A DNA stretch of 64,000 bases from Alphaproteobacteria bacterium (lineage in GTDB: Bacteria > Pseudomonadota > Alphaproteobacteria > JAAXGF01): NCBI GenBank assembly GCA_963555825.3, contig CAUVXB020000002.1:416001-480000 (forward strand), written 5' to 3'. Within the stretch, counting starts at the first letter, position 1. Every line of letters starts with the position of its first letter. The position numbers were made by a program, and so were the translations under genes. Under the pieces are notes generated by a model. That model ran no database searches, was not told the origin of the DNA, and saw nothing but the letters and a program-made list of their open reading frames with translations. Of this stretch, positions 1 to 15,972 are shown piece after piece.

Positions 1-571
1 CCAACTCGTCCTCGCCGGTGCGGCCCTTCATGATCGTCTCGCCCTCGTCCGAGAGGCCGAGATAGCCCAGCTTGTGGCTGCCAGGGAAGACCTGGAGCGC
101 GCCGTTGGCGGCGTCCTGGCGGTCGAAGGCGAGGCCGGTGGTGAGGTATTGGGTCGCCAGGTTCGAGAACAGCTCGGGCCGCTCGCGGAAGCGCAGGTCC
201 TGGTGGAAGCGGTAGCTGGTGTATTTGGCGCCGGCCGGCTTCCAGTGGAGCTGGTTGGCGATCTGCTTGATGTCGCGCCCGAGCAGCGGCTCGAGCAGGG
301 CGAAGTAGCGCGCGTCGCGGCGCAGCGCCTCGAGCACCGGGTTGATCCAGGCGAACCAATAGGCCTGGATGACGATGCGCCGCCGGGCCGCCGGGTCGTT
401 CAGCACCTCGAAGCAGAGGTTGCCGTCGCGCCAGGTCGCGTGGTGCTTGAGGCCCTCGGCATAGACCGCGTCGACCGCCGCCCGCGCCCGAGCCAAATCG
501 TCGCCGCGCAGGAACCCCCGGACGATGGCATAACCCTGTTCGCGCAACGCCGTGACATGTGGCGCCGCCAT
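1..571 (-). CDS. Phytanoyl-CoA dioxygenase (PhyH) family Fe(II)/2OG oxygenase, 3' end outside window
   Basis: Not in ORF track. Manual translation from ATG at 571: MAAPHVTALREQGYAIVRGFL...QLHWKP...YRFHQDLRF...DAANGALQVFPGSHKLG. Contains the HxD iron motif and the NGxLxVxPGSH motif of the PhyH family. Confidence 0.85.
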   Translation of the reverse strand, partial: MAAPHVTALREQGYAIVRGFLRGDDLARARAAVDAVYAEGLKHHATWRDGNLCFEVLNDPAARRRIVIQAYWFAWINPVLEALRRDARYFALLEPLLGRDIKQIANQLHWKPAGAKYTSYRFHQDLRFRERPELFSNLATQYLTTGLAFDRQDAANGALQVFPGSHKLGYLGLSDEGETIMKGRTGEDEL

Positions 572-904
572 ACCCGATCCTCCCGATTGCCCGGCCGCCG
601 ACAGCTAACCCCGAAACACGCGCCGCGTACAGTCCCGCGACGCGCAACCCGGCATCCCGCCTGCGACGGCGGCAAACAATATTGGCCCGACCGCGCCGGC
701 CAGGCCTTCGGCATCGGCCCGGCGATCGGCCGTATCATGGCCGACCTCCCGACCGACCAGTGAGTGGGTCGGGCCAGTGAGTGGGTCGGGACGGCAACAT
801 CGGGTTGGCGTTTGCCCTCGTCTATGGCCTGGATCGTTCGAATTGCCTGGCAGGACTCCATCGGCATTCACCGATCCTAGCCCGCGATCGGTGTTGAAGC
901 TGAA

Positions 905-1054
905 TCAGCGCCCTTCCCGGCCGTCGCCGCCGTCGTTGTTCCGCCGGCCCCGTGCCTCGATGACCTTGACGGCGGCCCAGACGACCGCGATGACGGCGAG
1001 TGCGAGGACGCCGATTTTCAAATAGGCGAGGGCCTGTCCGGCGGCGAAGCTCAT
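905..1054 (-). CDS. Small (49 aa) single-pass membrane protein
   Basis: Manual translation MSFAAGQALAYLKIGVLALAVIAVVWAAVKVIEARGRRNNDGGDGREGR*; hydrophobic helix followed by a basic tail; host-like codon usage. Confidence 0.5.
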   Translation of the reverse strand: MSFAAGQALAYLKIGVLALAVIAVVWAAVKVIEARGRRNNDGGDGREGR

Positions 1055-1124
1055 GGCGAAGGTCGACCGTAAGAAATGGGGAATTGCCTGCAGTGTTCAT
1101 GAAAAGAGGCTCGTCGAGAGAGCA

Positions 1125-3093
1125 CTAGTGTCCCGATTCCGAAGTTCGCATGATTTTCGCCTGCTGTTCAGCGATTTCGATTGTTCGGAGGCAGAAGCGC
1201 TGGATGGCGCCGAGGATGTCATCGGCGGATTTGGTCCATTTGAAGGGTTTGGGGTTCTGGTTTGTCGCAGGTCGATGTAGTCGAGGATGGTGCGCTCCAA
1301 CTCCTTGGTGGAGCGATGGACGCCGCGCCTGATCTGCTTGTCGGTCAGCAGCCCGAACCAGCGCTCGACCTGGTTCAGCCAGGAGGCGCTGGTGGGTGTG
1401 AAATGGGCCTGCCAGCGCGGCCGTTTGGCGAACCAGTCGCGGATCGCCTTGGTCTTGTGGGTCCCGTAGTTGTCCATGACGATGTGGGTCGAGATCAGCA
1501 GGGAGGATGAAACATTTGCCGATGATCCTCCCGTGGCGATGTCGAGGGCCGCGAAGAGAGAGGTCGATGCCGTGGGCTTGTAGTCGTGGCTGCGCCGCTC
1601 CGCCTGCCCGGGGCGCATCGGCAAGCGGGGATGGGAACGGTCCAGGGCCTGGATCTGGGGCGTCGACACAGGAACCAGGGCACGATCGCGGCGCCAAATA
1701 CAGACCGACGATCAGCGCGGAGTCCGAGAAGGGATCGCTCGAGCATGGTCTCCGGCGATGCGCTGCGGCCGAAGGCCCGCCAGATGCGCTCCAACTCCCT
1801 GGTCGCGTCCGGCGGCGTCCTTCCAGCGGCGGCGCTTCCGCGATGGCGATCGCCGATTTGACGCGGCGCGCGGGGCGTTCGTCGCGCGTCGAGGCCCTCC
1901 GCCGCATCGCCGCGCCTGATCTGTGTCCGCGCTCGCCTCGAGACGAACGGCCCGGACGATCGGTCAGCAGCCCCTGGGGCGCGCTGCGACGACGAGAGCG
2001 CCTCGGCAATTCCGCGCGCTCGTTCAGCCAGCCCGAGGCATGATCATCGATCGCGAGGACTGCCGGCGTGCGCGACAGTTCGATGTGCGATGGGCGATTG
2101 TTGCGAGCTGGGCACCGCGGCCGTTTGGCGACGCTCCAGTCCGCTGGAGCGATGGACGCCGCGCCTGATCTGCTTGTCGGTCAGCAACGAACCAGCGTCT
2201 TGGGGCGTGTGAACAGGGCCTCGGCCGTAGTCGCGGATCGCGTCTTGTGGGCAGGCCATGACGATGTGGATGTCGAGATCAGCAGGGACGTTCGCCTCGA
2301 CGAGGTCGAGGAATTTGCGGAACTCTCGGGCCCGATGGCGCGGGAAACATTTGCCGATGATCTCTCCCGTGGCGATGTCGAGGGCCGCGAAGAGAGAGGT
2401 CGTGCCGTGGCGCTTGTAGTCGTGGCTGCGCCGCTCCGCCTGCCCGGGGCGCATCGGCAAGAGGGGCTGGGAACGGTCCAGGGCCTGGATCTGGCTCTTT
2501 TCGTCGACACAGAGAACCAGGGCACGATCCGGCGGCGCCAAATACAGACCGACGATGTCGCGGACCTTCTCCACGAAGAAGGGATCGCTCGACAGCTTGA
2601 AGGTCTCCGAGCGATGCGGCTGCAAGCCGAAGGCCCGCCAGATGCGATGAATGGTCGAGGGCGCGTGGCCGCTCGCCCGCGCCATCGAGCGAAGGCTCCA
2701 ATGGGTCGCGTCCGGCGGCGTCTCTTCCAGCGTCAGCCGGACCGCTTCCGCGATGGCGTCATCGCCGATTTGACGCGGCGCGCCGGGGCGGGGTTCGTCG
2801 TACAGACCGTCGAGGCCCTCCGCCGCATAGCGGCGACGCCACTTGCCCACGGTGTCCGCGCTCGCCTCGAGACGAACGGCGATCTCCTTGTTCTCCAACC
2901 CTTCCGCCGCCGCCAAGACGATCCGAGCCCGCCGCGCAAGCCCCTGCGACGTCTTGCGACGACGAGACAGCGCCTCCAATTCGGCGCGCTCGTCATCGCT
3001 CAAAGAGATCGTCACCGCCACTCTCGCCATCAATCGCGCCTCCTAAAAACAAATAGAGACATAATCATATCAATTTATCGATCAGGACACTAG
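1125..3093 (-). mobile_element. Two degenerate or garbled tandem copies of the IS630-family element
   Basis: Starts with CTAGTGTCCCGATTCC at 1125. About 2260-3093 matches the intact copy; about 1260-2260 has many indels relative to it. Joined head-to-tail to the intact copy through a shared CTAG at 3090-3093. Confidence 0.8.
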
Positions 3094-4214
3094 TGTCCCG
3101 ATTCCGAAGTTCGCATGATTTTCGCCTGCTGTTCAGCGATTTCGATTGTTCGGAGGCAGAAGCGCTGGATGGCGCCGAGGATGTCATCGGCGGATTTGGT
3201 CCATTTGAAGGGTTTGGGGTTCTGGTTTGTCGTGTCGATGTAGTCGAGGATGGTGCGCTCCAACTCCTTGGTGGAGCGATGGACGCCGCGCCTGATCTGC
3301 TTGTCGGTCAGCAGCCCGAACCAGCGCTCGACCTGGTTCAGCCAGGAGGCGCTGGTGGGTGTGAAATGGGCCTGCCAGCGCGGCCGTTTGGCGAACCAGT
3401 CGCGGATCGCCTTGGTCTTGTGGGTCCCGTAGTTGTCCATGACGATGTGGATGTCGAGATCAGCAGGGACGTTCGCCTCGACGAGGTCGAGGAATTTGCG
3501 GAACTCTCGGGCCCGATGGCGCGGGAAACATTTGCCGATGATCTCTCCCGTGGCGATGTCGAGGGCCGCGAAGAGAGAGGTCGTGCCGTGGCGCTTGTAG
3601 TCGTGGCTGCGCCGCTCCGCCTGCCCGGGGCGCATCGGCAAGAGGGGCTGGGAACGGTCCAGGGCCTGGATCTGGCTCTTTTCGTCGACACAGAGAACCA
3701 GGGCACGATCCGGCGGCGCCAAATACAGACCGACGATGTCGCGGACCTTCTCCACGAAGAAGGGATCGCTCGACAGCTTGAAGGTCTCCGAGCGATGCGG
3801 CTGCAAGCCGAAGGCCCGCCAGATGCGATGAATGGTCGAGGGCGCGTGGCCGCTCGCCCGCGCCATCGAGCGAAGGCTCCAATGGGTCGCGTCCGGCGGC
3901 GTCTCTTCCAGCGTCAGCCGGACCGCTTCCGCGATGGCGTCATCGCCGATTTGACGCGGCGCGCCGGGGCGGGGTTCGTCGTACAGACCGTCGAGGCCCT
4001 CCGCCGCATAGCGGCGACGCCACTTGCCCACGGTGTCCGCGCTCGCCTCGAGACGAACGGCGATCTCCTTGTTCTCCAACCCTTCCGCCGCCGCCAAGAC
4101 GATCCGAGCCCGCCGCGCAAGCCCCTGCGACGTCTTGCGACGACGAGACAGCGCCTCCAATTCGGCGCGCTCGTCATCGCTCAAAGAGATCGTCACCGCC
4201 ACTCTCGCCATCAA
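3090..4214 (-). CDS. IS630-family transposase (374 aa)
   Basis: N-terminal HTH; DDE motifs [31 protein letters not shown]. The stop codon TAG is supplied by the CTAG target. Confidence 0.95.
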
Positions 4215-4274
4215 TCGCGCCTCCTAAAAACAAATAGAGACATAATCATATCAATTTATCGATCAGGACACTAG
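3090..4274 (-). mobile_element. IS630-family insertion sequence (intact), CTAG target
   Basis: Ends CTAGTGTCC...GGACACTAG; same element as the copy at 42491-43675 (identical transposase translation). Confidence 0.95.
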
Positions 4275-4427
4275 AGCACAATCCGATCGATTGGAATCGG
4301 TCGGATTGTGCCAGCCCGCGACTGCGGGCCGCCGACCGTTCGGCCACCCTTGATCCCATAAGATTGGCAAGCGCGGCGATTGAGCGCAGGTCAACTTTGC
4401 GAAGCAAAAGTGACCGGACAATGCTCT
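4272..4427 (+). repeat. Structured intergenic MITE/RIME-like repeat, copy A (one stem arm deleted)
   Basis: Imperfect terminal IRs TAGAGCACAATCCGATC / GACCGGACAATGCTCT. The core GGCCGCCGACCGTTCGGCC...GCGCGGCGATTGAGCGCAGGTCA is shared with the copies at 11476, 59112 and 59593. Confidence 0.85.
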
Positions 4428-4550
4428 TCCATTGTCGGGCCGGGACCGACGAAATCCGTCTGCGATCGAGGTCGCGTCGCGAAATGCGTTCCGAAAGTGT
4501 CGGCGCGTTTCGTCCTGACGGGTGGCGCGCTTTGGCGTACAATCACGGCC

Positions 4551-4697
4551 ATGACCGACCTGTTGGGCTTGTATCTTATGATTCTGGCCTTGTGGCTGGC
4601 ATCCGAGCTTGCCGCCAGGGATCTGTCGGGTCCCGCGCCCAAGGACCCCTACCGGCTGGACCGCTGGCGCAACGGCGAAGGCGACCCGGATCAGTAG
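4551..4697 (+). CDS. Small (48 aa) putative membrane protein
   Basis: MTDLLGLYLMILALWLASELAARDLSGPAPKDPYRLDRWRNGEGDPDQ*; hydrophobic N-terminus. Confidence 0.4.
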   Translation: MTDLLGLYLMILALWLASELAARDLSGPAPKDPYRLDRWRNGEGDPDQ

Positions 4698-4715
4698 CCC
4701 GCGTCGGCAAGTGCC

Positions 4716-4860
4716 CTAATCCGGCAACGGCACCCCAGCCTTCTTCAGCATCGCGGCCTGACGGCGCTTGAGGCGGGCGGCGTCGAAGTCCTGGATGAGC
4801 TCCTCGAACAGGGCGTGCCAGTTGATCTCGGCGGCGAGGTGGAGGAACACCGAGCCGAGG
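4716..4860 (-). repeat. Orphan copy (145 bp) of the 3' end of the ABC1 kinase gene
   Basis: Translates LGSVFLHLAAEINWHALFEELIQDFDAARLKRRQAAMLKKAGVPLPD*; collinear with 10115-10259. Confidence 0.92.
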
Positions 4861-4869
4861 GCGCCGCCG

Positions 4870-5760
4870 TTAGTCCGTGTTAGGCGGCAAGCAGCACACC
4901 TGGTCGTAGGGGTAGTGATCGGCGAGCGTGCCGAGGTGCTCGAAGACGTCGAGCGCGACCTCGAAGGCGGCGGGCGTGATCTCGGCGTGCGGCGTCCAGC
5001 AGCCGAGCGCCTGGTAGGTCGCGATGCAGTCGGCCAGAACGTCCTCGTCGATGTCGGGGAAATAAGGCTTCTGCGCCCGGGCGATCTCGGCCGCCGGCGT
5101 CTCGTTCATGTAGAGCCGGGTCTTCCGGTAGGCGCGCGTGAAGGCCCGGGCCATGTCGGTCGCGAGCCATGCCGGCGTGGCGCACAGCGAGGAGAACGCG
5201 ACCGGCCCGATCTTCGGGCCGACCTGGGCGACGACGTGGCCGACGCCGTCCTTGGCGAGCTGCTGAGGGAACGGGCCCTGCTGCTGGACGTACTGGCCCT
5301 GGCCGTCGCGGAACGCCGCATCGATGTCGGCCGGGCCGCCCGGCGTGATCAGCTTGATCCGCTCGAAATCGATGCCCGCCTTGTGGCAGGCGTAGACGAA
5401 CATGGCGCGCGGCTGGCCGCCCTTGAAGCAGACCAGCCCGGCGCCCTCCAGCTTGTCCCAGGTGAAGTCGGGGTCGGCGTCGCGGCCGGTGAGGAAGAAG
5501 CCGTCCATCTCGTTGATCTGGGCGAAATGCCTGACCCGGGGCGTCTCGCCCCTGGCCAGCACCGCGAACCCCTGGCTCGGCGCCGACTGGGCGACATCGA
5601 CCGAGCCGTCGAGAAGCGCCTCGATGGCGGACGTCCCCGGCGGCGAGATCGACCAGTCGGGCTCGAGCCCCTCGTCGGCCAGAAACCCGCCCGACATCGC
5701 CGAGATCAGCGGCGAATAAAACGCCGAAAACAGCGTGAACTGGATGTTGATGGTAGCCAT
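4870..5760 (-). CDS. NMT1/THI5/TauA-like substrate-binding-fold protein with no evident signal peptide
   Basis: FYSPL...GFLADEGLE...ALLDGSVDVA pattern typical of NMT1/SsuA-type PBP2 proteins; RBS GGGAGAG upstream. Confidence 0.75.
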   Translation of the reverse strand: MATINIQFTLFSAFYSPLISAMSGGFLADEGLEPDWSISPPGTSAIEALLDGSVDVAQSAPSQGFAVLARGETPRVRHFAQINEMDGFFLTGRDADPDFTWDKLEGAGLVCFKGGQPRAMFVYACHKAGIDFERIKLITPGGPADIDAAFRDGQGQYVQQQGPFPQQLAKDGVGHVVAQVGPKIGPVAFSSLCATPAWLATDMARAFTRAYRKTRLYMNETPAAEIARAQKPYFPDIDEDVLADCIATYQALGCWTPHAEITPAAFEVALDVFEHLGTLADHYPYDQVCCLPPNTD

Positions 5761-5907
5761 TTCTCTCTCCCTTACCGGTCTGTTCGTTTGCGTTCGTTGT
5801 GCCTGGATCGTGCTCGCCCGCTACCGATCACGGGCCTTCGGCGACGGCATGACGGCCGGCGCCGTTCGTCGGACGACCCGTCGACCCTATGAACTCGAAC
5901 ACGCACC

Positions 5908-6160
5908 CTACTCCGCCAACGGCACCCCCGCCTTCTTCAGCATCGACGTCTGCCGCCGCTTCAACCGCGCCACATCGAAGTCCTGGATCAGGTCTTCGAA
6001 CAGGGCGTGCCAGTTGATCTCGGCGGCGAGGTGGAGGAAGACCGAGCCGAGGCCGATCGCGGCGCGGTCCATGTAGACGAACTCCTGGGGCGGCCGCACG
6101 CCGCCTAGCCGGTCCAGCTCGCGGTGCACCTTGGCGGCGACCTCGCGGCCGTAGACGCCC
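5908..6160 (-). repeat. Orphan copy (253 bp) of the 3' end of the ABC1 kinase gene
   Basis: Translates GVYGREVAAKVHRELDRLGGVRPPQEFVYMDRAAIGLGSVFLHLAAEINWHALFEDLIQDFDVARLKRRQTSMLKKAGVPLAE*; same length as 10115-10367, no indels. Confidence 0.93.
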
Positions 6161-6209
6161 TCGAATCTCGTCTGAATTCAGATCTCGGAGCAAACCGGCA
6201 AATAAAAAT

Positions 6210-6929
6210 CGGGCTGTCCTAGCTAAGGGCGTTTCTGTCTCAAAATAATCCATGTCTTCAATTGGTTAAGCAGTTCTCGGTGGTCACCTCCGTTGAACCG
6301 CCATTCGCACTCCTTGAGGAACAGGTGAAAGCTCTGTTTCGGGACGCCATTGAAGCGCCGTAAATGCCGCTTCGCCTGGTTCCAGAAGTTCTCGATCCCG
6401 TTGATATGGCTCCGCTCGTCGACGAACCGCTCCGAGTGATTGATCCGAACATGGTGGAAGTCCGAAACGTCCAGGGCATCATAGCTCGAAAAGCCGTCCG
6501 TATAGACGATGCTGTCAGGCCGGATCATACGCTCCATAATCGGCATCAACGTGGCAGTCCGGGCATTGGGAATCATCGCCGTGTAGACCTTCCCACCTCG
6601 CTTCAAAAGCCCGAAAACCGGGACTTTTCCGCCAGCGCCTCGACCCCGCTTGCCTTTGCGGCGGCCGCCAAAATAACTCTCATCAACCTCGATCTCTCCG
6701 GCAAAAGGCGAGGCCTTCTCCATTTCCTCGGCAATCACCTTGCGAAGCCGAGTATAAAACGAGGCCGCCGTGTTCCGGTGGACGCCAACCAGTTCGGCTG
6801 CTGCCCGAGCCGTCGTACCCGCAACGAAGTGCTCAATCAGACGACCGCGCTTCCAATCACTGAGCCGGCTTTTCCTCTCGTACATCCCGCCATCCTAGCC
6901 TAAGCATGCCGCTTAGCTAGGACAGCCCC
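6210..6929 (-). mobile_element. IS1595-family (IS1016-like) element, transposase 6223-6885
   Basis: IRs (C/G)GGGCTGTCCTAGCTAAG; 220-aa transposase with EVDESYFGG, YTDG and INGIENFW motifs. Confidence 0.93.
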
Positions 6930-8174
6930 ATCTTTTATTCTTGGCAGAGCGATGTTCCCAATGCCGTCAACCGTAACTTCATTCGGCGGGCCCTTGAGCA
7001 GGCGGTAGAGAGCCTCAACCGCCAGGAGGGTGCCGATGTCGAGGACGCGGTCCGGCTCGATCAGGACACTCAAGGTGTCGCCGGCTCGCCCGCCATCGTC
7101 GACACCATCCTGGCCAAGATCGAGGTCTGCGACGTCTTCCTCCCGGACGTCACCTTCGTGCCCGATAACGCGGCGCGGCGCACGCCCAACCCGAATGTGA
7201 TGATCGAGTACGGCTACGCGCTGAAGGCACCCAGTGCGGCGAAGATCGTCACGGTAATGAACACCCATTTCGGACCACCCACCGAGCTACCCTTCGACAT
7301 GCGCCACCGCCGGTTTCCGATCACCTACGATTTGGCGCCCGACGCGGATCCCGAGACGCGGCGCCGCGTCCGGGACCGGCTGGTCACCGATCTCGCCCGG
7401 GCCATCGCCACGGTCCTCGACGCGCGTCCGGCACCTGTCACGGAGCCGCCGCCGCCCTTCGACCGTAGCCCCACCTTCGACAGCGGCGCGACCTTCGTCG
7501 AGGCGAACGAGCTATTCCCCATGTGGGTCGACGGCGAGGGGGAGGCTCAGCGACGCTTTCCCGTCGGTCCGAAGATGTTCCTGCGTCTGATGCCGCGCGA
7601 CGCCGTACCGCCAATCGAGCGCGCCGCCCTCCTCGAGGTACTCGCAGCCACCGAGCTCTGGCCCCTCGGCTATCAGCGCTACCAGGGATGGGGCATGGGC
7701 ACCAACCGTCTTGGCGGCGGCTATGTTGCCTGCCACCGCGCCGACGACACTCTTATCGGGGCCATCTCTCAGATCATGCTCACGCGGGAAATTTGGGGAA
7801 TCGAGACGCATCTCCTCACCCATGCCGCTTCCCGGCACTGGGTCGACCGGGACTATCCTGTAATTCCAGACACGCTCCTCCGTCAGATTTTCGAGGACGG
7901 ACTCACGCGCTATCTCCGCGTCGCTCGCGAGCATCTCGTACTGTCCCCGCCCTTCGTCGCCGTCGCCGGCGTCGCGAACCTGGAGAACCACAGGCTGACC
8001 CTGTCGCAGACACAGATCAGCAATCAGATCTATGAATCCGCGATTTCGCGCGAAATCCTCATTGATGACCCGGACCGTCCGACCGCCGACTTTCTGTATC
8101 CCTTTTTTGCGGCACTCTACGATGCGGTCGGAGCGCGCTTGCCGCCACCCGAATCATCGGAAACCCACTCATAG
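6930..8174 (+). pseudogene. TIR-like/nucleoside deoxyribosyltransferase-like N-domain protein, detached from its start codon by IS/inversion
   Basis: Frame is open from 6930: IFYSWQSDVPNAVNRNFIRRAL...DQDTQGVAGSPAIVDTILAKIEVCDVFLPDVT...PNPNVMIEYGYAL...LPFDMRHRR. The missing start (ATG ATT ATC...) lies at 9848 on the minus strand. Confidence 0.75.
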
Positions 8175-8253
8175 AACTGTGAGGCCTCGGGCCGGGCGCC
8201 AGCCCGACCTAAGGGCGGGCTAAGAGCGGTGAATCAATCTGCGGAGAGTAATA

Positions 8254-9114
8254 ATGCCAAAACGACATTGCGTTCTTCCTGAGGGTGAAGATGGACCTCG
8301 ATGCAGAATTGGAATTTTGCAGGTCTTTTATCCCTGGAATGAGCCCGAGCTTCTCATCTTGCAAGGCTACAATGTACGCCATCCAGAACAACGACCGCAA
8401 TTTATTGGATTCCACTTCCGACAGGTTTTATTCCGGCTTGTACGTTCGCTGGGGCTTTTGCATCATCAAGCTCGACGCTACGACGGGTTTCTCGACGAAG
8501 GCGGTATCGCTGGCCCAAATCCAATTCTCGCCTTCGAGATTCCCGAAGTGGCGGGCATTGCCGCCGACAGTGTATTCCACTACCTCACCCTTTTCATCGA
8601 CGACCTTGCCCGAATTGTTCCGTATGTCCTCACTAACGAGGGTAATGAACCCATTGAGATCGATGGATTCAGTGGGCTCAAGAAGAGTATCTTGGATGAA
8701 CAGCTGCCTGCTCCGGATACTGTGGGGGATTTGTTTGCGGCGTTGGACCACGACAAATCGTGGTGGTCGCTCGGATTCAAGCGAGGTGAAGGAATACGCC
8801 AAAGGCTCACGCATTATATCGATCTCGTATATTTTCGAGCTAGCACCAAACCAGGTGACGCTAAAATGACTAGTGACATTTCGCTTGTCACATGTGGTGG
8901 ACCTGTCCGCGAAATTGACTTTGAAAGCGTTCTGCAAGAGCTGTTTTTGGACATGTTTGAATGGCTGGACCAAATCGATGTGGCGCTTCTGTCTTGCCTT
9001 TCAGAGAGGCTGAAAGACAAGAACATTTTTTGGAATCCCCTCGATGAACCTATTCCCGCCATTCCGCTACCGGAGCCGGATGCGGCTCGACCTGACGTGC
9101 GTCACTATTTTTAT
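8254..9114 (+). CDS. Putative HEPN-domain protein (Cthe_2314-like); last codons displaced by IS/inversion
   Basis: DSVFHYLTLFIDDLARIV helix and an RxxxxH motif (RQRLTH); lower GC. The original tail LPVCSEI* lies at about 6177-6201 on the minus strand. Confidence 0.55.
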
Positions 9115-9834
9115 GGGGCTGTCCTAGCTAAGCGGCATGCTTAGGCTAGGATGGCGGGATGTACGAGAGGAAAAGCCGGCTCAGTGATTGGAAGCGCGGT
9201 CGTCTGATTGAGCACTTCGTTGCGGGTACGACGGCTCGGGCAGCAGCCGAACTGGTTGGCGTCCACCGGAACACGGCGGCCTCGTTTTATACTCGGCTTC
9301 GCAAGGTGATTGCCGAGGAAATGGAGAAGGCCTCGCCTTTTGCCGGAGAGATCGAGGTTGATGAGAGTTATTTTGGCGGCCGCCGCAAAGGCAAGCGGGG
9401 TCGAGGCGCTGGCGGAAAAGTCCCGGTTTTCGGGCTTTTGAAGCGAGGTGGGAAGGTCTACACGGCGATGATTCCCAATGCCCGGACTGCCACGTTGATG
9501 CCGATTATGGAGCGTATGATCCGGCCTGACAGCATCGTCTATACGGACGGCTTTTCGAGCTATGATGCCCTGGACGTTTCGGACTTCCACCATGTTCGGA
9601 TCAATCACTCGGAGCGGTTCGTCGACGAGCGGAGCCATATCAACGGGATCGAGAACTTCTGGAACCAGGCGAAGCGGCATTTACGGCGCTTCAATGGCGT
9701 CCCGAAACAGAGCTTTCACCTGTTCCTCAAGGAGTGCGAATGGCGGTTCAACGGAGGTGACCACCGAGAACTGCTTAACCAATTGAAGACATGGATTATT
9801 TTGAGACAGAAACGCCCTTAGCTAGGACAGCCCG
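9115..9834 (+). mobile_element. IS1595-family element (inverted copy), transposase 9159-9821
   Basis: Same IRs and identical 220-aa translation as 6210-6929. Confidence 0.93.
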
Positions 9835-10114
9835 TAAAAGATAATCATCACATTACCCCCTGATGTGCCCTCCATTCGCGAAGATGACTTACTGTTTACA
9901 CCGACGGCCACGTTGAGTGAAAGTTACTGCCGAGGGTCGCACCGCGGTGGACCTAGAGCACTTTTCGATCAGTACGCCGAATATTTTGGCATACCCGATG
10001 GCGCCGCAATCAGTCCACCGATGGAATCGGATTAGGTACTTCGTTTGATGGGCCACAGCGGCTTGGCTCACGTCGAACTTTGACGAGATTGCCCTGGCTT
10101 CTGGCCACACCCCC

Positions 10115-11470
10115 CTACTCCGGCAACGGCACCCCCGCCTTCTTGAGCATCGCGGCCTGACGGCGCTTGAGCCGCGCCACGTCGAAGTCCTGGATCAGGT
10201 CTTCGAACAGGGCGTGCCAGTTGATCTCGGCATCCAGGTGCAGGAACACCGAGCCAAGACCGATCGCGGCGCGGTCCATGTAGACGAACTCCTGGGGCGG
10301 GCTCACGCCGCCCAGGCGGCCCAGCTCGCGGTGCACCTTGGCGGCGACCTCGCGGCCGTAGACGCCCGACTTGGTCTCCTCCTGAATGCGCCGGGCGCGG
10401 TCGTCGAGCACCGGGCTGTAGACGAATTGGGCCCACAGGTTGAGCACGTCCAACAGCTCATCGGTCAGGCCGGTGAAGCCCCAGGTCTGGTAGGCATGGA
10501 CCGCGAGATCGCGGTCGTCGTTCTGCAGCGCGTGGTAGAGGTCGATGACGCCGGCGATGAACTTCGGCCGGAAGACGCGGATGCAGCCATAATCCAGCAG
10601 GTTGATCGTGCCGTCGGGGCGCACCGTGTAGTTGCCCAGATGCGGGTCGCCGTGGATGACGCCCCAGTTGTAGAACGGCACGTACCAGGCGTGGAACATG
10701 TTGTGCGCCACGGTGTTGCGCTCGGCGGCGGATCGCCCGACCCAGTCCATCAGGCGGTCGCCCTCGAGCCAGGTCATGGTCAACAACCGGTCGGTCGAGA
10801 GCTCGGCCACTTCCTCGGGCACGTGGACGCCGGGCTCGCGCGCCAGCATGCGGGCGTAGAGCGCCATGTGCCGGGCCTCGAGGTCGTAGTCGAGCTCCTC
10901 GCGCAAGCGGGCGGCGATCTCGGCGTGGATGCGGCTGGTGTCGATCGCCCTGTCGTAGCGCTGGTAGATCGCGAAGACGACCTTGAGCTGCTTCAAATCG
11001 GCCTCGACGACCGAGCGCATGTCGGGGTACTGCAGTTTGCAGGCGAGTTCACGGCCGTCGAGGCCGGTCGCGCGGTGGACCTGGCCGAGCGAGGCCGCCG
11101 CCGCGGCCTGGTGGCCAAAGTCGGCGAAGTGCTCGCGCCAGGCGGGGCCGAGCTCGGCGGCCATGCGGCGTTTGACGAAGGGCCAGCCCATCGACGGCGC
11201 GTTGGCCTGAAGCGCGCTGAATTCCTCGATGTATTCGTCGCGCAGCGCGTCGGGGATGGTCGACATCAACTGGGCGACCTTCATCAGCGGTCCCTTGAGG
11301 TCGCCCAGCGCATGGCGCAGATCGGCGGCCAGTCTGGGCCGGTCGAGCGGCACGCCGAACAGGCGCTCGGCGCCGATGCGCGCGGCGATCGTGCCGATCG
11401 AGGTCGACACGCGGGCGTAGCGCTTGACCCGGCCGCCGAGCGTGTTGTCCTCGGATTGCCGCCGCGCCAT
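10115..11470 (-). CDS. ABC1/UbiB/AarF (COQ8-like) atypical kinase
   Basis: KGPLMKVAQ, AAASLGQVH, KLQYP, EELDY, IHGDPHLGN and LLDYG motifs. Confidence 0.93.
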   Translation of the reverse strand: MARRQSEDNTLGGRVKRYARVSTSIGTIAARIGAERLFGVPLDRPRLAADLRHALGDLKGPLMKVAQLMSTIPDALRDEYIEEFSALQANAPSMGWPFVKRRMAAELGPAWREHFADFGHQAAAAASLGQVHRATGLDGRELACKLQYPDMRSVVEADLKQLKVVFAIYQRYDRAIDTSRIHAEIAARLREELDYDLEARHMALYARMLAREPGVHVPEEVAELSTDRLLTMTWLEGDRLMDWVGRSAAERNTVAHNMFHAWYVPFYNWGVIHGDPHLGNYTVRPDGTINLLDYGCIRVFRPKFIAGVIDLYHALQNDDRDLAVHAYQTWGFTGLTDELLDVLNLWAQFVYSPVLDDRARRIQEETKSGVYGREVAAKVHRELGRLGGVSPPQEFVYMDRAAIGLGSVFLHLDAEINWHALFEDLIQDFDVARLKRRQAAMLKKAGVPLPE

Positions 11471-11475
11471 GCGTT

Positions 11476-11657
11476 TAGACCATTGTCCGGTTACTTTTTG
11501 GTGCGGTCACCTTTGGTGACCTGCGCTCAATCGCCGCGCATGCCAATCTTGATCCCACAAGGACTGGCCGAACGGTCGGCGGCCCCCCTCTTGTTGGGAT
11601 AAGATTGGCGCGGGCTGGTAGGAGCCGGCCGAATTCGATTGATTGGATTACGCACTA
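11476..11657 (-). repeat. Structured intergenic MITE/RIME-like repeat, copy B (full length)
   Basis: Begins at the pepF TAG stop, ends ...CCGGACAATGGTCTA 5 nt before the ABC1 ATG; long stem GCCAATCTT...AAGATTGGC. Confidence 0.88.
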
Positions 11658-13451
11658 ATCGTCTTCTTCGAGCTCGTCGATGAAGCCCGAGATGACGTCC
11701 AGCCCCTTCGACCAGAACGCCGGGTCCGACGCGTCGAGCCCGAACGGCGCCAACAGCTCCTTGTGGCGCAGCGTGCCACCGGCGCGCAGCATCGTGAGGT
11801 AGCGCTCCTGGAAGCCTTGCGCCGAATCCTGGTAGACCGCGTAGAGCGAGTTCACCAGACACTCGCCGAAGGCATAGGCGTAGACGTAGAACGGCGTGTG
11901 GATGAAGTGCGGGATATAGCTCCAGTAGGCGCCGTAACCGTCGTCGAAGCGGATCGCCGGGCCGAGGCTCTCGCCCTGGACGGCGAGCCAGATCTCGCCG
12001 ATGCGCTCGCCGGTCAGCTCGCCGGCGCGGCGCTCGTCGTGTAGCCGGCGCTCGAACTCGCAGAAGGCGGCCTGGCGCACCACGGTGTTGATCATGTCCT
12101 CGACCTTGCCGGCCAGCATGACGCGCCGGCGTTTGGCGTCGTCCTCGGCGCCGAGCATGGCGCGGAAGGTGAGCTGCTCGCCGAACACCGAAGCGGTCTC
12201 GGCGAGCGTCAGCGGCGTGTCGGCCATCAGCGCGCCCCGCTCGGCGGCGAGCAGCTGGTGGACGCCGTGGCCGAGCTCGTGCGCCAGCGTCATGACGTCG
12301 CGCGTCTTGCCCTGGTAGTTGAGTAGGATATAGGGGTGCGCGCTCGGCACGGTGGGATGGGAGAAGGCGCCGGGCGCCTTGCCGGCGCGCACGCCGGCGT
12401 CGACCCAGGCGTTGTCGAAGAAGCGCTTGCCGAGGTCCGCCATCTCGCCCGAAAACGCGCCATAGGCGCCGAGCACGGTGTCGACCGCGGCGTTCCACGG
12501 CACCACCCGGTCGTCGTCGTCGGGCAGCGGCGCGTTGCGGTCCCAATGGTCGAGCGCGTCGACGCCCAGCCAGCGCGCCTTGATCGCGTAATATCGGTGC
12601 GAGAGCCGTGGATAGGCGTTTCTGACCGCGTCGAGCAGCGCGTCGACGACCTCGTCCTCGACCTGGTTGGCCAGGTTGCGCGACGAGATCGGCCGGGCGA
12701 AGCCGCGCCAACGATCCTCGATCTCCTTATCCTTGATCAGCGTGTTGGTGATCAGCGCGAAGCACCGGACATTGGCGCCGAGCACTTCGGTCAGCGCCCC
12801 GGCGGCGCGTTCGCGCAGCGCGGCGTCGGGGTCGGACATGAGGTGCAGCGCCTCGGCGCTGGTCAATTCCTTGCCGTCGATCGGGAAGCGCAGGCCGTCG
12901 ATGGTCTGATCGAACAGGCGCGTCCAGGCGGCGCGCCCGACGACCGATTTGTCGTGCAAGAGCTTCTCGATCTCGTCGGACAGCTGATGGGGCCGGAAGG
13001 CGCGCTGGTCGCGTACCCAGGACGCGTAATGCGCCGCGCCGGGCGTGCCCATCTTGGCGGCCAGCGTGTCGTCGTCGAGCCGGTTGAGCTCGAGCGTGAA
13101 GAACAGGACATGGGCCGAAATATCGGTGATCGCCTCGTGCATGGTCTGGAAGAAGCGGCCGACTTCCGGGTCGTCCACGGCGCCGGCGTGCATCAGCGAG
13201 GCGTAGCTCATGACACGGCCGAGGATCTCCTCGATCGCCTCATACTCGGCGATGGCGTCGCCCAGGCCCGAGCCGTCGATCTCGGCGAGCCGGCCGGCGT
13301 AGCGGCTCTCGAACGCCTCGGCCGACGCGCGCACGGCCGCAAGGTCCTGCTTGAGTTCCGACGACTCGGGTCCCGGATAGAGATCGTTCAGGTCCCAGCC
13401 GGGCAGCATGCCGACCGCCGCCTCTCCGTCATTCACCACCGCATCGCTCAT
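11655..13451 (-). CDS. pepF: M3B oligoendopeptidase F
   Basis: TLAHELGHGVH zinc motif, AETASVFGE, WSYIPHF..PFYVYAYAFG. Confidence 0.93.
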   Translation of the reverse strand: MSDAVVNDGEAAVGMLPGWDLNDLYPGPESSELKQDLAAVRASAEAFESRYAGRLAEIDGSGLGDAIAEYEAIEEILGRVMSYASLMHAGAVDDPEVGRFFQTMHEAITDISAHVLFFTLELNRLDDDTLAAKMGTPGAAHYASWVRDQRAFRPHQLSDEIEKLLHDKSVVGRAAWTRLFDQTIDGLRFPIDGKELTSAEALHLMSDPDAALRERAAGALTEVLGANVRCFALITNTLIKDKEIEDRWRGFARPISSRNLANQVEDEVVDALLDAVRNAYPRLSHRYYAIKARWLGVDALDHWDRNAPLPDDDDRVVPWNAAVDTVLGAYGAFSGEMADLGKRFFDNAWVDAGVRAGKAPGAFSHPTVPSAHPYILLNYQGKTRDVMTLAHELGHGVHQLLAAERGALMADTPLTLAETASVFGEQLTFRAMLGAEDDAKRRRVMLAGKVEDMINTVVRQAAFCEFERRLHDERRAGELTGERIGEIWLAVQGESLGPAIRFDDGYGAYWSYIPHFIHTPFYVYAYAFGECLVNSLYAVYQDSAQGFQERYLTMLRAGGTLRHKELLAPFGLDASDPAFWSKGLDVISGFIDELEEDD

Positions 13452-13588
13452 CCGATTCCGCCCTCCATCGTCGCGCCCCGCCCAATCCTATAGCCATCAC
13501 GCCCGGCGCCGCCATGCCTCAACGCTTGGGCCAGCGGGTGAGTATGTTTAATATCGCCGCCTTGGCCAGCAACAAGATAGTGCGAGGC

Positions 13589-15376
13589 ATGATGCGCGAC
13601 GAGGTGTGGACCAATCTGGCGGCGATGTTTTTCGACTGCGCCGCGGCGGGCGGCGACGCACCCTTCCTGTGGTCGAAGCACGGCGGCGCGTACCGGCCGC
13701 AGTCGTGGCGCGCCATCGCCGACGAGGTCTCGGCGCTGTCGCGCGGCCTGCGCGCGCTCGGCGTCGCGCGCGGCGACCGCGTCGTGCTGGTCTCGGAGAA
13801 CCGGCCCAACTGGGTCGTCGCCGACCTCGCGATCATGGCCGCCGGCGCCGTGCCGGTGCCCGCCTACACGACCAACACGACCGACGATCACGGCCATATC
13901 CTGACCGATTCGGGCGCCACCGCGGCGATCGTCTCGACGTCCGCGCTCGCCGAACGCCTGCTGCCGGCCGCCGACGCCGCGCCCGAGCTGCGCTTGGTCG
14001 TCGCCATGGAGCCTCCCGAGCGCGCCGAGGGGCAAGCGGTCGCGGTCCACGCCTGGGACGAGGTCGTCGCGCGCGGCCGCGCGGCGCCCGACGACGTCGC
14101 CGAACTGGTCGGCCGCCTGACGCGGCGCGACCTCGCCTGCATCATCTACACCTCGGGCACCGGCGGGCGGCCCAAGGGCGTCATGCTCTCTCACGCGGCG
14201 ATCCTGTGCAATATCGGCGGCGCCCACGGGCTGCTGGCCGGGCTCGGCCTGACCGACGAGGTGTTCCTGTCGTTCCTGCCGCTGTCGCATTCCTACGAGC
14301 ACACCGCGGGGCTGCACTTCCCGATCTCGATCGGCGCGCAGATCTACTACGCCGAGGGTGCCGAGACGCTGGCCGCCAACCTGACCGAGGCGCGCCCGAC
14401 GATCCTCACCTGCGTGCCCCGGCTGTTCGAGACCATGCGCCAGCGCATCCTGGCGGGCGTCAAGCGCACCGAGGGCCTGAAGCGCAAGCTGTTCGACGCG
14501 GCGCTCGAGCTCGGCCGCCGGCGCTACGAGGACCCGGCCAGCCTGTCGTTCGGCGACCGGCTGCTCGACCGGCTGGTCGAGCGGCTGGTGCGCGACAAGG
14601 TGCGCGGGCGCTTCGGCGGCCGGCTCAAGGCGCTGATCTCGGGCGGCGCGCCGTTGAACTACGACGTCGGGCTGTTCTTCGTCGCGCTCGGCCTGCCGCT
14701 GTTGCAGGGCTATGGCCAGACCGAGGCGGCGCCGGTCATCTCGGCCAACCGGCCCGAGCGCAACAAGCTGCGCACGGTCGGCCCGCCGCTCGACGGCGTC
14801 GAGGTAAGGATCGCCGAGGACGGCGAGATCCTGGTGCGCGGCGAACTGGTCATGGACGGCTACTGGAACAACGCGGAGGCCACCGCCGAGGCGCTCGCCG
14901 ACGGCTGGCTGCATACCGGCGACATCGGTGTGCTGGACGCCGACGGCTACATCGAGATCACCGACCGCAAGAAGGACATCATCGTCAACTCGGGCGGCGA
15001 CAACCTGGCGCCGCAGCGCGTCGAGGGCGTGCTCGCGCTCGAGCCCGAGATCGCCCAGGCGATGGTGTTCGGCGACCGCCGCCCGCATCTGGTCGCGCTG
15101 ATCGTGCCCGACGCGGACTTCGTCGAGGTCTACGCCGAGACCAACGGCGTCGCCGCCGACCTTGCGGCATTGGCCGCCGACGCCGCCTTCAAGCGTGCGC
15201 TGGGCGCCGCGGTCGAGCGCGCCAACGCGGGCCTCTCGCCGATCGAGCGGATCAAGCGCCACGCCGTCGCCGCCGAGCCCTTCACTGTCGACAACGGCGA
15301 GATGACGCCGACGCTCAAGGTCCGCCGCCACGCCGTCACGGCGCGCTACGGCGCGGTGCTCGAGGGGCTGTATTGA
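13589..15376 (+). CDS. Long-chain fatty acid-CoA ligase (AMP-binding)
   Basis: IIYTSGTGGRPKGVMLSH, QGYGQTE, GWLHTGDIG, TPTLKVRR; start chosen at ATG 13589. Confidence 0.92.
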   Translation: MMRDEVWTNLAAMFFDCAAAGGDAPFLWSKHGGAYRPQSWRAIADEVSALSRGLRALGVARGDRVVLVSENRPNWVVADLAIMAAGAVPVPAYTTNTTDDHGHILTDSGATAAIVSTSALAERLLPAADAAPELRLVVAMEPPERAEGQAVAVHAWDEVVARGRAAPDDVAELVGRLTRRDLACIIYTSGTGGRPKGVMLSHAAILCNIGGAHGLLAGLGLTDEVFLSFLPLSHSYEHTAGLHFPISIGAQIYYAEGAETLAANLTEARPTILTCVPRLFETMRQRILAGVKRTEGLKRKLFDAALELGRRRYEDPASLSFGDRLLDRLVERLVRDKVRGRFGGRLKALISGGAPLNYDVGLFFVALGLPLLQGYGQTEAAPVISANRPERNKLRTVGPPLDGVEVRIAEDGEILVRGELVMDGYWNNAEATAEALADGWLHTGDIGVLDADGYIEITDRKKDIIVNSGGDNLAPQRVEGVLALEPEIAQAMVFGDRRPHLVALIVPDADFVEVYAETNGVAADLAALAADAAFKRALGAAVERANAGLSPIERIKRHAVAAEPFTVDNGEMTPTLKVRRHAVTARYGAVLEGLY

Positions 15377-15402
15377 TTTCCATCTGGGCATAAGGGCTTG
15401 GT

Positions 15403-15858
15403 ATGAGCGACGATCTGACGGTCTATCTTTCGGGTGATATCCACAGCGATTGGCGCGAGCGCATTCGCGAAGGCGTGGCGGCCGCGGGGCTCGACGTGAC
15501 GTTGCTCGCACCGGTTACCGATCATGCCACCAGCGACGCGGCCGGCGTCGCGATCTTGGGCGCCGAGGCGGATGACTTCTGGCGCGACCACAAGGGCGCC
15601 AAGGTCAACGCCATCCGCACGCGCACGCAGATCGAGCGCGCCGATGTCGTCGTCGTGCGCTTCGGCGACGAGTACCGTCAGTGGAACGCCGCCTTCGACG
15701 CGGGCTACGCCGCGGCGTTGGGCACCCCGGTCATCACGCTCCACGACGCCGCGCTCGGCCATGCGCTCAAGGAGGTCGACGCCGCGGCCTTAGCCGTTGC
15801 CGAGACCCTCGAGCAAGTCGTCCGCCTGCTCGCCTACGTCGTCAAGGGAAAGTTGTAG
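15403..15858 (+). CDS. YtoQ-family (nucleoside 2-deoxyribosyltransferase-like) protein
   Basis: VYLSGDIHSDWRE...QWNAAFDAGYAAALG...HALKEVDAAA. Confidence 0.85.
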   Translation: MSDDLTVYLSGDIHSDWRERIREGVAAAGLDVTLLAPVTDHATSDAAGVAILGAEADDFWRDHKGAKVNAIRTRTQIERADVVVVRFGDEYRQWNAAFDAGYAAALGTPVITLHDAALGHALKEVDAAALAVAETLEQVVRLLAYVVKGKL

Positions 15859-15972
15859 ACTGCCATCAACTACCGCTGTTGGTTGTAACGGCGGTTTGGT
15901 CTAAGTTTCGCCACACCGTTGACGCAGGATGCCCGGCCGACGCCCGATCGGCGCCGCCGTGAGCAGACCGAC

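Follow-up and report, generated by a model that had tools for sequence, protein, structure and literature searches.

Diverged copies of a kinase gene 3' end lie behind probably inserted genes in an alphaproteobacterial genome

The window analysed here, a 64,000-nt stretch of an alphaproteobacterial genome (contig CAUVXB020000002.1 of assembly GCA_963555825.3, C2:416001-480000), carries an intact gene for an ABC1-type atypical kinase and, behind it, two further copies of the 3' end of that gene, which lie in the same orientation and are separated by unrelated genes. The end of the live gene is referred to as tail A and the two orphan ends as tails B and C. Comparison with sister strains shows that the tails diverged inside working genes and are not local duplicates in decay. 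The explanation favoured here, to which we give an even chance of being correct, is that two successive homology-anchored insertions, made with linear donor DNA and completed by illegitimate right joins, would have pushed the resident kinase end downstream; a dedicated recombinase was probably not needed. Positions without a prefix are those of the window, C1 and C2 are the two contigs of the genome, and negative positions are counted back from the end of the kinase gene.

Kinase gene ends and their sister-strain alleles

A repeat search returned a three-copy family of 146 nt (4714-4859, 5906-6051 and 10113-10258; 87% and 90% identity to the reference copy) and a two-copy family of 255 nt (5906-6160 and 10113-10367; 91%). 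On alignment, the three tails are gapless direct repeats in one orientation. Each runs 2 nt beyond the stop codon, to TAGGG, before homology is lost, and the 5' edge is sharp, at -253 for tail B and at about -145 to -150 for tail C. Both methods thus agree with the initial annotation, made from the sequence letters alone, which had described the kinase end as recurring twice, co-oriented, terminated by the stop codon and without indels. In the complete 6.04-Mb two-contig genome, tail matches occur at these three places only. The live gene matches the Pfam ABC1 family (Table 1), and the UbiB models of NCBIfam score under their cut-offs on it. Tail B is preceded by an in-frame stop codon, 17 nt before its start lies the stop codon of the gene termed cargo 2, and tail C starts 10 nt past the stop codon of an NMT1-like gene; because of these preceding stops, tails B and C lie outside any longer kinase open reading frame (ORF). 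For annotators this is a warning that short 'kinase fragment' ORFs located 3' of the gene are footprints and not genes. A 29-nt block, of which all five alleles considered below have 20 nt in common, is free of differences across tails A, B, and C; this block could be a crossover core, and the starts of the orphans differ (-253 and about -145).

The alleles were compared with those of two sister strains, L096 and L097, which were recovered from metagenome contigs and of which the live kinases have 93-94% protein identity. Three close relatives were found in total, with useful downstream DNA in one. The source genome is the sole member of its genus among species representatives, and the next kinase is 79% identical. 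The five alleles (A, B, C, L096, and L097) are roughly equidistant, with 126-130 of 145 positions identical in each pair (87-90%), and the best tail in any other relative reaches at most 78.5%; the tail donors were therefore sister strains of the same clade. In the last 48 codons, synonymous and non-synonymous differences number 12 and 5 for A-B, 12 and 5 for A-C, and 12 and 8 for B-C, which bears out the earlier description of the differences as mostly synonymous or conservative. The corresponding ratios of non-synonymous to synonymous divergence (dN/dS) are 0.10, 0.10, and 0.17 at a dS of 0.46-0.47, and the live alleles A, L096, and L097 yield 0.08-0.19, with dS ranging from 0.30 to 0.56 over all comparisons. 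This dN/dS analysis, which had been proposed as a check at the outset, is contrary to neutral decay of local duplicates. The mosaic character of the tails, also noted initially, is upheld by the clustering of the odd copy out, which falls into 12 runs over the 27 sites that vary among A, B, and C (permutation P 0.005). Several tail blocks are common with L096 or L097, and the mosaic exists at the population level.

Divergence within the kinase gene is concentrated at its end. L096 and L097 are separated by 18 differences over 782 upstream positions, by none over the adjoining 152, and by 18 over the final 151 nt (Fisher P 1.5e-6); divergence at this end is about five-fold that of the gene body. 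The window kinase compared with L096 has 73 differences in 1018 positions of the body, 2 in 193 at 10452-10260, and 19 in 142 in the tail; the 10452-10260 block extends upstream of the start of copy B, and copy B has 5 differences there. The history of the final ~150 nt is therefore deeper than that of the remaining gene, and the kinase gene end travels with whatever DNA sits downstream of it. The live alleles first become polymorphic at -152, which matches the start of tail C; since they do not differ from one another over the ~190 nt before it, the apparent boundary would be the same for any crossover there.

The DNA behind the gene differs from one strain to the next. Homology of L096 and L097 to the window ends 3-4 nt past the stop codon, and among the 200 nt following the stop in the five contexts, nine of the ten pairs have no similarity beyond that of shuffled sequences, the tenth being A-L097 (P 0.005, uncorrected). 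The L097 kinase is followed by a type II-A retron, consisting of a reverse transcriptase and an NDT-like effector (L097:1122-3030, minus strand; RT_II-A E 6.9e-117, NDT_II-A E 1.3e-69), and by a PIN/Phd toxin-antitoxin pair (3588-4207) and a dispersed repeat. The site holds defence-type genes in L097 too. The statement that the cargo differs by unit thus extends to the sister strains, in which the DNA behind the stop differs again. No second tail is present in the 3.7 kb downstream of the kinase of L097, a 94% sister strain. In L096 the post-stop DNA is unrelated, and no homologue of the tail C flank was found in it. The gene upstream of the L096 kinase encodes an M81/MlrC-type peptidase (L096:399-1892), where pepF is found in the present genome, at L115, and in 64 of 80 relatives; L096 therefore differs upstream as well, and both kinase flanks have been rearranged within the clade.

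Variation in the number of tail copies among relatives, which the initial annotation had anticipated, was not encountered. Among 160 related loci examined, the tail was seen in 156, of which none had a second tail, the L097 locus included; at least 3 kb of downstream DNA was available for 96. Moreover, 62 of 101 relatives share the 3 kb downstream of the kinase, which correspond to pntA/pntB-type genes that lie 700 kb away in the present genome. The kinase end as a general hotspot in the wider family was rejected on these two counts.

Gene order, cargo, and surroundings of the array

The present gene order was altered by insertion sequences (IS). The two IS1595-family copies of the array are identical and mutually inverted, forming a perfect 722-nt inverted repeat. 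Copy A is flanked by ATAAAAAT and ATCTTTTA, and copy B by ATCTTTTA and ATAAAAAT; in other words, their 8-bp target duplications are swapped, and such 8-bp target duplications are also found at other IS1595 copies of the genome, in which the element has 18 hits and which is IS-rich in general. The swapped duplications therefore indicate inversion by recombination between the two copies. With the inversion undone by script, the order reads kinase, TIR-like gene (cargo 1), Rx4H gene (cargo 2), tail B, NMT1-like gene, tail C, all co-oriented, with spacings of 272 nt between kinase and cargo 1, 17 nt between cargo 2 and tail B, 145 nt between tail B and the NMT1-like gene, and 10 nt between the latter and tail C. 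The two units measure 1.2 kb (E2, with the NMT1-like gene) and 2.75 kb (E1, with cargo 1 and cargo 2).

Close matches to the source bacterium occur in sponge metagenomes, of which contigs were compared over the stretch 4431-9112 (one IS1595 copy, tails B and C). In run X1, a public sponge metagenome, one contig joins 6209 to 9106 on opposite strands and another joins 6930 to a kinase tail. These joints are the predicted IS-free, un-inverted form. The IS1595 events are therefore recent and polymorphic, as also follows from the intact cargo 1 protein on record. Inversion and co-oriented cargo order had both been proposed initially; the swapped duplications and the X1 joints bear out the former, and the script reproduced the latter. 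Three studies supplied the runs X1, X15, and X18, whose contigs span the junctions of flank and tail C, tail C and NMT1-like gene, and NMT1-like gene and tail B, with 0-1 differences per junction. At the NMT1-like stop codon, one X1 contig carries an additional C after 4871, which would change the end of the ORF in that population. Over window 4431-4708, run X5 contains two strains, a near-identical one at low depth and one of about 92% identity at higher depth, which has its own mosaic kinase tail; a 92%-identical version of the 4431-4713 flank occurs in this run. Stretches of 4431-9112 that lack cover in X5 were given no weight. An X5 joint of 4782 to 5975, which skips 1192 nt, might be a deletion between tails B and C, but the contig has A-type letters at 6094-6113 and more probably represents the live, mosaic kinase allele of that strain.

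Table 1. Positions of the features of the kinase locus and of three further loci with an orphan gene end
Feature	Position	Strand	Evidence or remark
Live ABC1-type atypical kinase gene, 451 aa	10115..11470	-	Pfam ABC1 E 4.2e-54
Tail A, final 253 nt of the live kinase gene	10115-10367	-	
Orphan tail B, 253-nt end of a kinase allele + 2 nt	5906..6160	-	91% to tail A
Orphan tail C, ~145-nt end of a kinase allele + 2 nt	4714..4860	-	90% to A, 87% to B
Spacer of unit E1, kinase stop to cargo 1 start codon, 272 nt	9843..10114	-	No homology to post-stop DNA of the other four contexts
Cargo 1, 416 aa when intact	6930..8174	+	Severed from its start codon by IS, inverted; GC3 0.78
Cargo 2, 294 aa when intact	8254..9106	+	Last 10 codons at 6209-6178 (-); GC3 0.50
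NMT1/THI5-like (SsuA-like) solute-binding-type gene, 296 aa	4870..5760	-	Sole gene of unit E2; Pfam NMT1 E 3.5e-7
IS1595-family copy A	6210..6929	-	Inserted 10 codons ahead of the cargo 2 stop; Pfam, inverted repeat, target duplications
IS1595-family copy B	9115..9834	+	Inserted within cargo 1 codons 3-5; Pfam DDE_Tnp_IS1595 E 2.1e-34
Flank past tail C	4431..4713	+	48-aa ORF (4551-4697) convergent on the array; unique in genome
Dispersed-repeat copy, ~150 nt	4272..4430	.	About 219 BLAST hits in genome
Three IS630-family copies, adjacent or nested	1125..4274	-	Far-side boundary of the array; Pfam DDE_3 + helix-turn-helix
TPP (thiamine pyrophosphate) enzyme orphan end, 170 nt, 96%	C1:304730-304899 / 315134-315303 (L177)		10 kb apart
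PG_binding_1 protein orphan end, 324 nt, 86%	C2:330521-330844 / 332841-333164 (L179)		2.3 kb apart
SMP-30/gluconolactonase-like (SGL) orphan end, 153 nt + 13 nt = 166 nt, 93%	C1:27990-28155 / 30749-30914 (L176)		2.6 kb apart

Cargo 1 starts with MIIFYSWQSD, a start that is now interrupted at codons 3-5 by IS1595, and an intact 416-aa protein that is 100% identical is on record (P0003 in the protein collection). Its family comprises more than 500 unnamed proteins. The AlphaFold2 model has a mean confidence (pLDDT) of 87.5, and Foldseek related its N-terminal domain to the TIR-STING structure 7un8 (E 1.6e-4; 169 columns, TM about 0.36 on the target) and to the nucleoside deoxyribosyltransferase (NDT) 9emx (E 1e-3), and the match to Pfam CAP12 TIR, at E 0.23, is not significant. 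The domain is thus modelled as flavodoxin-like and TIR/NDT-like, and the TIR-like label given initially holds at the level of the fold only. Cargo 2 has 81 relatives and a helical model (pLDDT 90), and its R182-x4-H187 motif is invariant in 37 sequences. Foldseek returned nothing for it at E <= 0.001, Pfam and PADLOC yielded zero matches, and its scores against HEPN-type chains (VIA-align Z 5.5-6.5) are within the noise range for helical bundles; a HEPN-like nature, as judged from the model, is plausible but unproven. Of 400 other genomes of the class, 8 contain a relative of cargo 1 and 1 a relative of cargo 2, and no genome has both; a conserved pairing of the two was rejected on this ground. 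The NMT1-like gene matches TIGR01728 under its cut-off (E 4.6e-5). Its GC content at third codon positions (GC3) of 0.94 is native-like and equals that of the kinase gene, the values for cargo 1 and cargo 2 being 0.78 and 0.50.

At its far side the array borders on IS630-family copies. This 1185-nt element has 82 BLAST hits in the genome, mostly of 100% identity, and its copies often form head-to-tail runs of 3-4 that overlap by a few bases (C1:236430-239976, C2:2333166-2336710). The dispersed ~150-nt repeat next to it has an internal hairpin-like inverted repeat and 72-100% identity across its hits, and a second copy lies between pepF and the kinase gene (11477-11657). An interpretation of 4272-4430 as an inverted copy of the kinase promoter was rejected, as this stretch is a dispersed repeat with ~219 hits and lies outside the array. 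The repeat also adjoins the genes that flank the variable DNA in L097 and at C2:2417718, and it may serve as substrate in the numerous rearrangements.

Routes by which the gene ends may have been displaced

Any model must unite diverged sister-strain alleles and leave the kinase intact. In the explanation favoured here, the orphan tails would be former kinase gene ends. Twice, DNA of a sister strain, from the same genus-level clade, would have recombined into the 3' part of the kinase gene, each import bringing a new gene end together with the donor's downstream DNA, the NMT1-like gene first and the TIR-like/Rx4H pair later. The left join would have been a homologous crossover within the gene, in the conserved block upstream of the tail, and the right join an illegitimate one within the resident tail, the first event using a point at about -145 and the second one at -253, with the resident tail and the DNA behind it being shifted downstream. 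The route may have been homology-facilitated illegitimate recombination or a close equivalent, as has been proposed for orphan arrays of type VI secretion system (T6SS) and Rhs genes (PMC5361080). Subsequently, patchy conversion among alleles would have yielded the mosaic tails, and later still two IS1595 copies landed at either end of that gene pair, which was then inverted between them. The copies, their divergence under purifying selection, the differing neighbours in sister strains, the lack of recombinase genes, and the IS history are observed; from these we infer in which order the events took place, that linear DNA was the route, and that the right joins were illegitimate.

Several observations are explained by such homology-anchored insertion, namely the lack of recombinases, the native NMT1-like gene, the imported-looking block at 10452-10260, and the other orphan gene ends of the genome. 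That the 10452-10260 block looks imported while copy B keeps 5 differences there fits a donor tract that came in by way of the gene body, B being the allele then resident. A lone gene with a GC3 of 0.94, such as the NMT1-like gene, is as expected for a random piece of a sister chromosome.

Other orphan 3' ends, for which the initial annotation had envisaged a genome-wide scan, were sought by self-comparison in 60-kb windows, from which pairs were kept if they had a stop codon in common and reading frames that were unequal upstream of it. The scan recovered the kinase pairs A-B and A-C plus further candidates, of which three are convincing by eye (TPP enzyme, PG_binding, and SGL; Table 1), and no recombinase gene was found between the copies of these three. 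The TPP copies end 1-2 nt past the stop codon, enclose mostly IS copies, and have a dN/dS of 0.63. The PG_binding copies (dN/dS 0.68) enclose genes of the TetR, NAD_binding_10, and anthrone-oxygenase types, whose GC3 is lower; a 101-nt fragment at 328265-328365 matches the DNA immediately upstream of the PG_binding orphan, and this locus may be a second array. The interval at the SGL locus (dN/dS 0.22) holds a cyclase-TPR gene between 288-nt inverted repeats that represent the downstream region of the SGL gene itself, and the SGL orphan is joined to the inverted copy of this region at a 7-nt microhomology (CGGGCGC). This IS-rich genome therefore does contain illegitimate joins by which gene ends were left as orphans. 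Candidates C2:253604, C2:1043729, C1:1934910, and C2:427504 were dropped for having more than 4 genome copies each, and C2:1649811 because the pair is only 87 nt long. The pair C2:2195859-2196136 / 2212001-2212278 was rejected as a gene end, since it consists of copies of an element of 278 nt bounded by terminal inverted repeats (CTAGCCCGG..TTCTCACCA.GGACAGG); this element of ~278 nt resembles a miniature inverted-repeat transposable element and is also found at L179:10391-10971.

A number of points weigh against homology-anchored insertion. Both orphan tails start 10-17 nt past a cargo stop codon, where random donor ends would rarely be so tidy, and these compact gaps suit a cassette or an attachment (att) site better. 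Polymorphism among the live alleles sets in, at -152, just where tail C starts, as a fixed crossover core predicts, and all five contexts diverge 2-4 nt past the stop, a boundary that homology-facilitated illegitimate recombination does not make. In addition, the low divergence of 10452-10260 could reflect constraint and not import, PMC5361080 reports homology-facilitated illegitimate recombination as a rare event, and the import would presuppose DNA uptake in this organism.

The first three of these points are what lends substance to site-specific accretion, in which two small elements with a mimic of the kinase end as att site would have been integrated serially by a tyrosine or serine recombinase, the integrase gene being lost or acting in trans; this account is possible though rather unlikely. 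Direct repeats of the 3' end of a target gene are the classic footprint of such integration, as icd and icdC that flank e14 exemplify (PMC13626634), and tandem accretion of integrase-less cis-mobilizable elements (CIMEs) is described in PMC5704250. Tail C starts where the live alleles start to diverge, the 29-nt block identical in A, B, and C (20 nt in five alleles) could be the core, the units are compact with a tail 10-17 nt past the cargo stop, the five contexts diverge right at the stop codon, and the L097 cargo, a type II-A retron, is typical island content.

The recombinase that this account calls for was found neither in the units nor near them. The genome has 45 matches to PF00589, which could act in trans, and 4 to PF00239, none of which lies in the window, as the initial annotation had concluded for integrases; the nearest are at C2:67,957 and C2:601,578, about 350 and 175 kb from the locus (C2:420,714-427,470). 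Pfam scans of the ORFs of the array returned DDE transposases only and no recombinase, and the 1.2-kb and 2.75-kb units have no remnants of mobility genes. Likewise, no recombinase was found in the 3.7 kb after the L097 kinase. From 39 relatives without the common neighbour, 139 ORFs in the first 4.5 kb past the kinase were picked, and the 61 of these that were scanned, from 26 loci, with near-duplicate loci and later ORFs set aside, contained no recombinase and one DDE transposase. Rfam and tRNA scans of 1-16000 detected no RNA genes. A phage origin was rejected, given that the tail 29-mer had no matches in viral contigs and that the kinase has no relative there. Finally, copy B starts at -253, away from the putative core, and serial integration predicts three unrelated sources for each tail segment, where blocks shared in pairs are observed.

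The cassette model, which resembles the interpretation given in the initial annotation, appears improbable. It holds that circles of cargo and tail would loop out between tails and re-enter by a single crossover, through RecA or another enzyme, to form a growing array. The layout of tail, cargo, tail, cargo, tail with compact and co-oriented units is what it leads one to expect, the mosaic of the tails is as crossovers within tails would give, and the length of an orphan would equal the homology carried on the circle; it shares with the att-site account the tidy 10-17-nt gaps, the tail C start at the polymorphism boundary, and the contexts that diverge at the stop. A parallel with integrons has, moreover, been drawn for integrase-less T6SS arrays (PMC5361080). 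Nevertheless, a second tail is absent from all 156 related loci, repeats of 145-253 nt that are about 90% identical make a poor RecA substrate, and the imported-looking block extends upstream of the repeat, which a single crossover inside the repeat cannot yield; the origin of the first unit is left unexplained by it as well. An attC-like single-strand fold was likewise rejected, both strands of the three tails yielding z values of -2.4 to +1.4 with no significant attC-type fold and no shared hairpin. Joints of tail-tail deletions or circles were absent from the X1, X15, and X18 contigs, which cover tails B and C and in which rare forms are missed. In the interpretation given initially, the serial insertions that displace older gene ends fit the layout, and its integron-like part is at odds with the lack of an attC-type fold and of second tails elsewhere; integron-like cassettes, and a mobile unit made of cargo with its own downstream tail, are unproven and neither excluded nor supported by the data. 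It is doubtful that the end of this housekeeping-type kinase gene is a docking site for cassettes without an integrase gene, made up of one or more genes with a 150-250-nt tail and mobilized by RecA or by a recombinase encoded elsewhere, which would form an ordered, growing array at a hotspot of defence and accessory genes that varies between strains and for which the other genes with orphan ends would be further docking sites.

That the gene end was duplicated in tandem within this genome, its copies decaying neutrally and being parted by later insertions, is very improbable. The SGL locus of the same genome looks like such a case, as the tail and a 288-nt downstream region are duplicated at 93% identity with a microhomology junction, and the dN/dS values of the TPP and PG_binding orphans (0.63 and 0.68) would suit it. 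The kinase tails, however, have a dN/dS of 0.10-0.17, the level of live alleles, over 145-253 nt without indels or stop codons at a dS of about 0.45; the orphans are as distant from the live tail as the sister-strain alleles are, and similarity is lacking past the stop codon. That the array is an assembly artefact, with the alleles of co-occurring strains stitched together, is scarcely credible, since, although run X5 has a second strain of about 92% identity alongside the near-identical one, contigs of three studies cross the junctions with 0-1 differences and an X1 contig joins 6209 to 9106, with the caveat that one of X1, X15, and X18 may be the source of the assembly.

Significance and known systems of displaced gene ends

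If no dedicated recombinase was involved, the locus would be a clean natural example of the homology of a conserved gene trapping foreign genes, here of defence type, beside it. A displaced gene end is a dated scar for each event, and genome-wide mining could count and order past acquisitions. Such insertions would also explain why the final ~150 nt of a core gene can be far more diverse than the remainder. If a recombinase was involved, the locus would represent a protein-coding att site with stacked, integrase-less mini-elements in an IS-rich bacterium.

The locus resembles known footprints of displaced gene ends, and here no integrase was found. Phage 21, like the element e14, is integrated in icd of Escherichia coli. 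At icd, the e14 insert supplies a new, slightly different 3' end with which the gene stays functional, and the old end is a co-oriented orphan beyond the insert, with mostly synonymous or conservative differences, as at the kinase locus (PMC13626634). Unlike the kinase locus, which has two stacked units of 1.2 and 2.75 kb and no recombinase gene, e14 has its own integrase and excises.

In accretion of integrative and conjugative or mobilizable elements (ICEs, IMEs) with CIMEs, the att repeats are short. Members of the ICESt1 family, like the units described here, stack at the 3' end of a gene and may have lost their integrase (PMC5704250). Such arrays have near-identical att cores and normally at least one integrase-bearing element, whereas the kinase repeats are 145-253 nt long and 87-91% identical, with no integrase found at the locus or in relatives. 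The kinase locus thus shares with e14 and the CIMEs the direct repeats of a gene 3' end that flank the insert and the intact gene, and differs from them in having no recombinase gene in or beside the element.

Integron arrays are likewise ordered sets of co-oriented, compact units separated by a repeated element; integrons depend on IntI, attI, and structured attC, none of which is found at the kinase locus, where the repeat is a coding gene end. The Rhs, CdiA, and T6SS arrays are similar in that new 3' modules are anchored upstream and older pieces are shifted as orphans without an integrase (PMC5361080). Their displaced ends are hypervariable toxin domains with immunity genes under selection, whereas here the displaced end would be a conserved kinase C-terminus, with 5-8 changes in 48 residues, to which the cargo is unrelated. 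With these displacement arrays the kinase locus has in common a conserved upstream anchor, co-oriented orphan 3' pieces, and a recombinase-free constitution.

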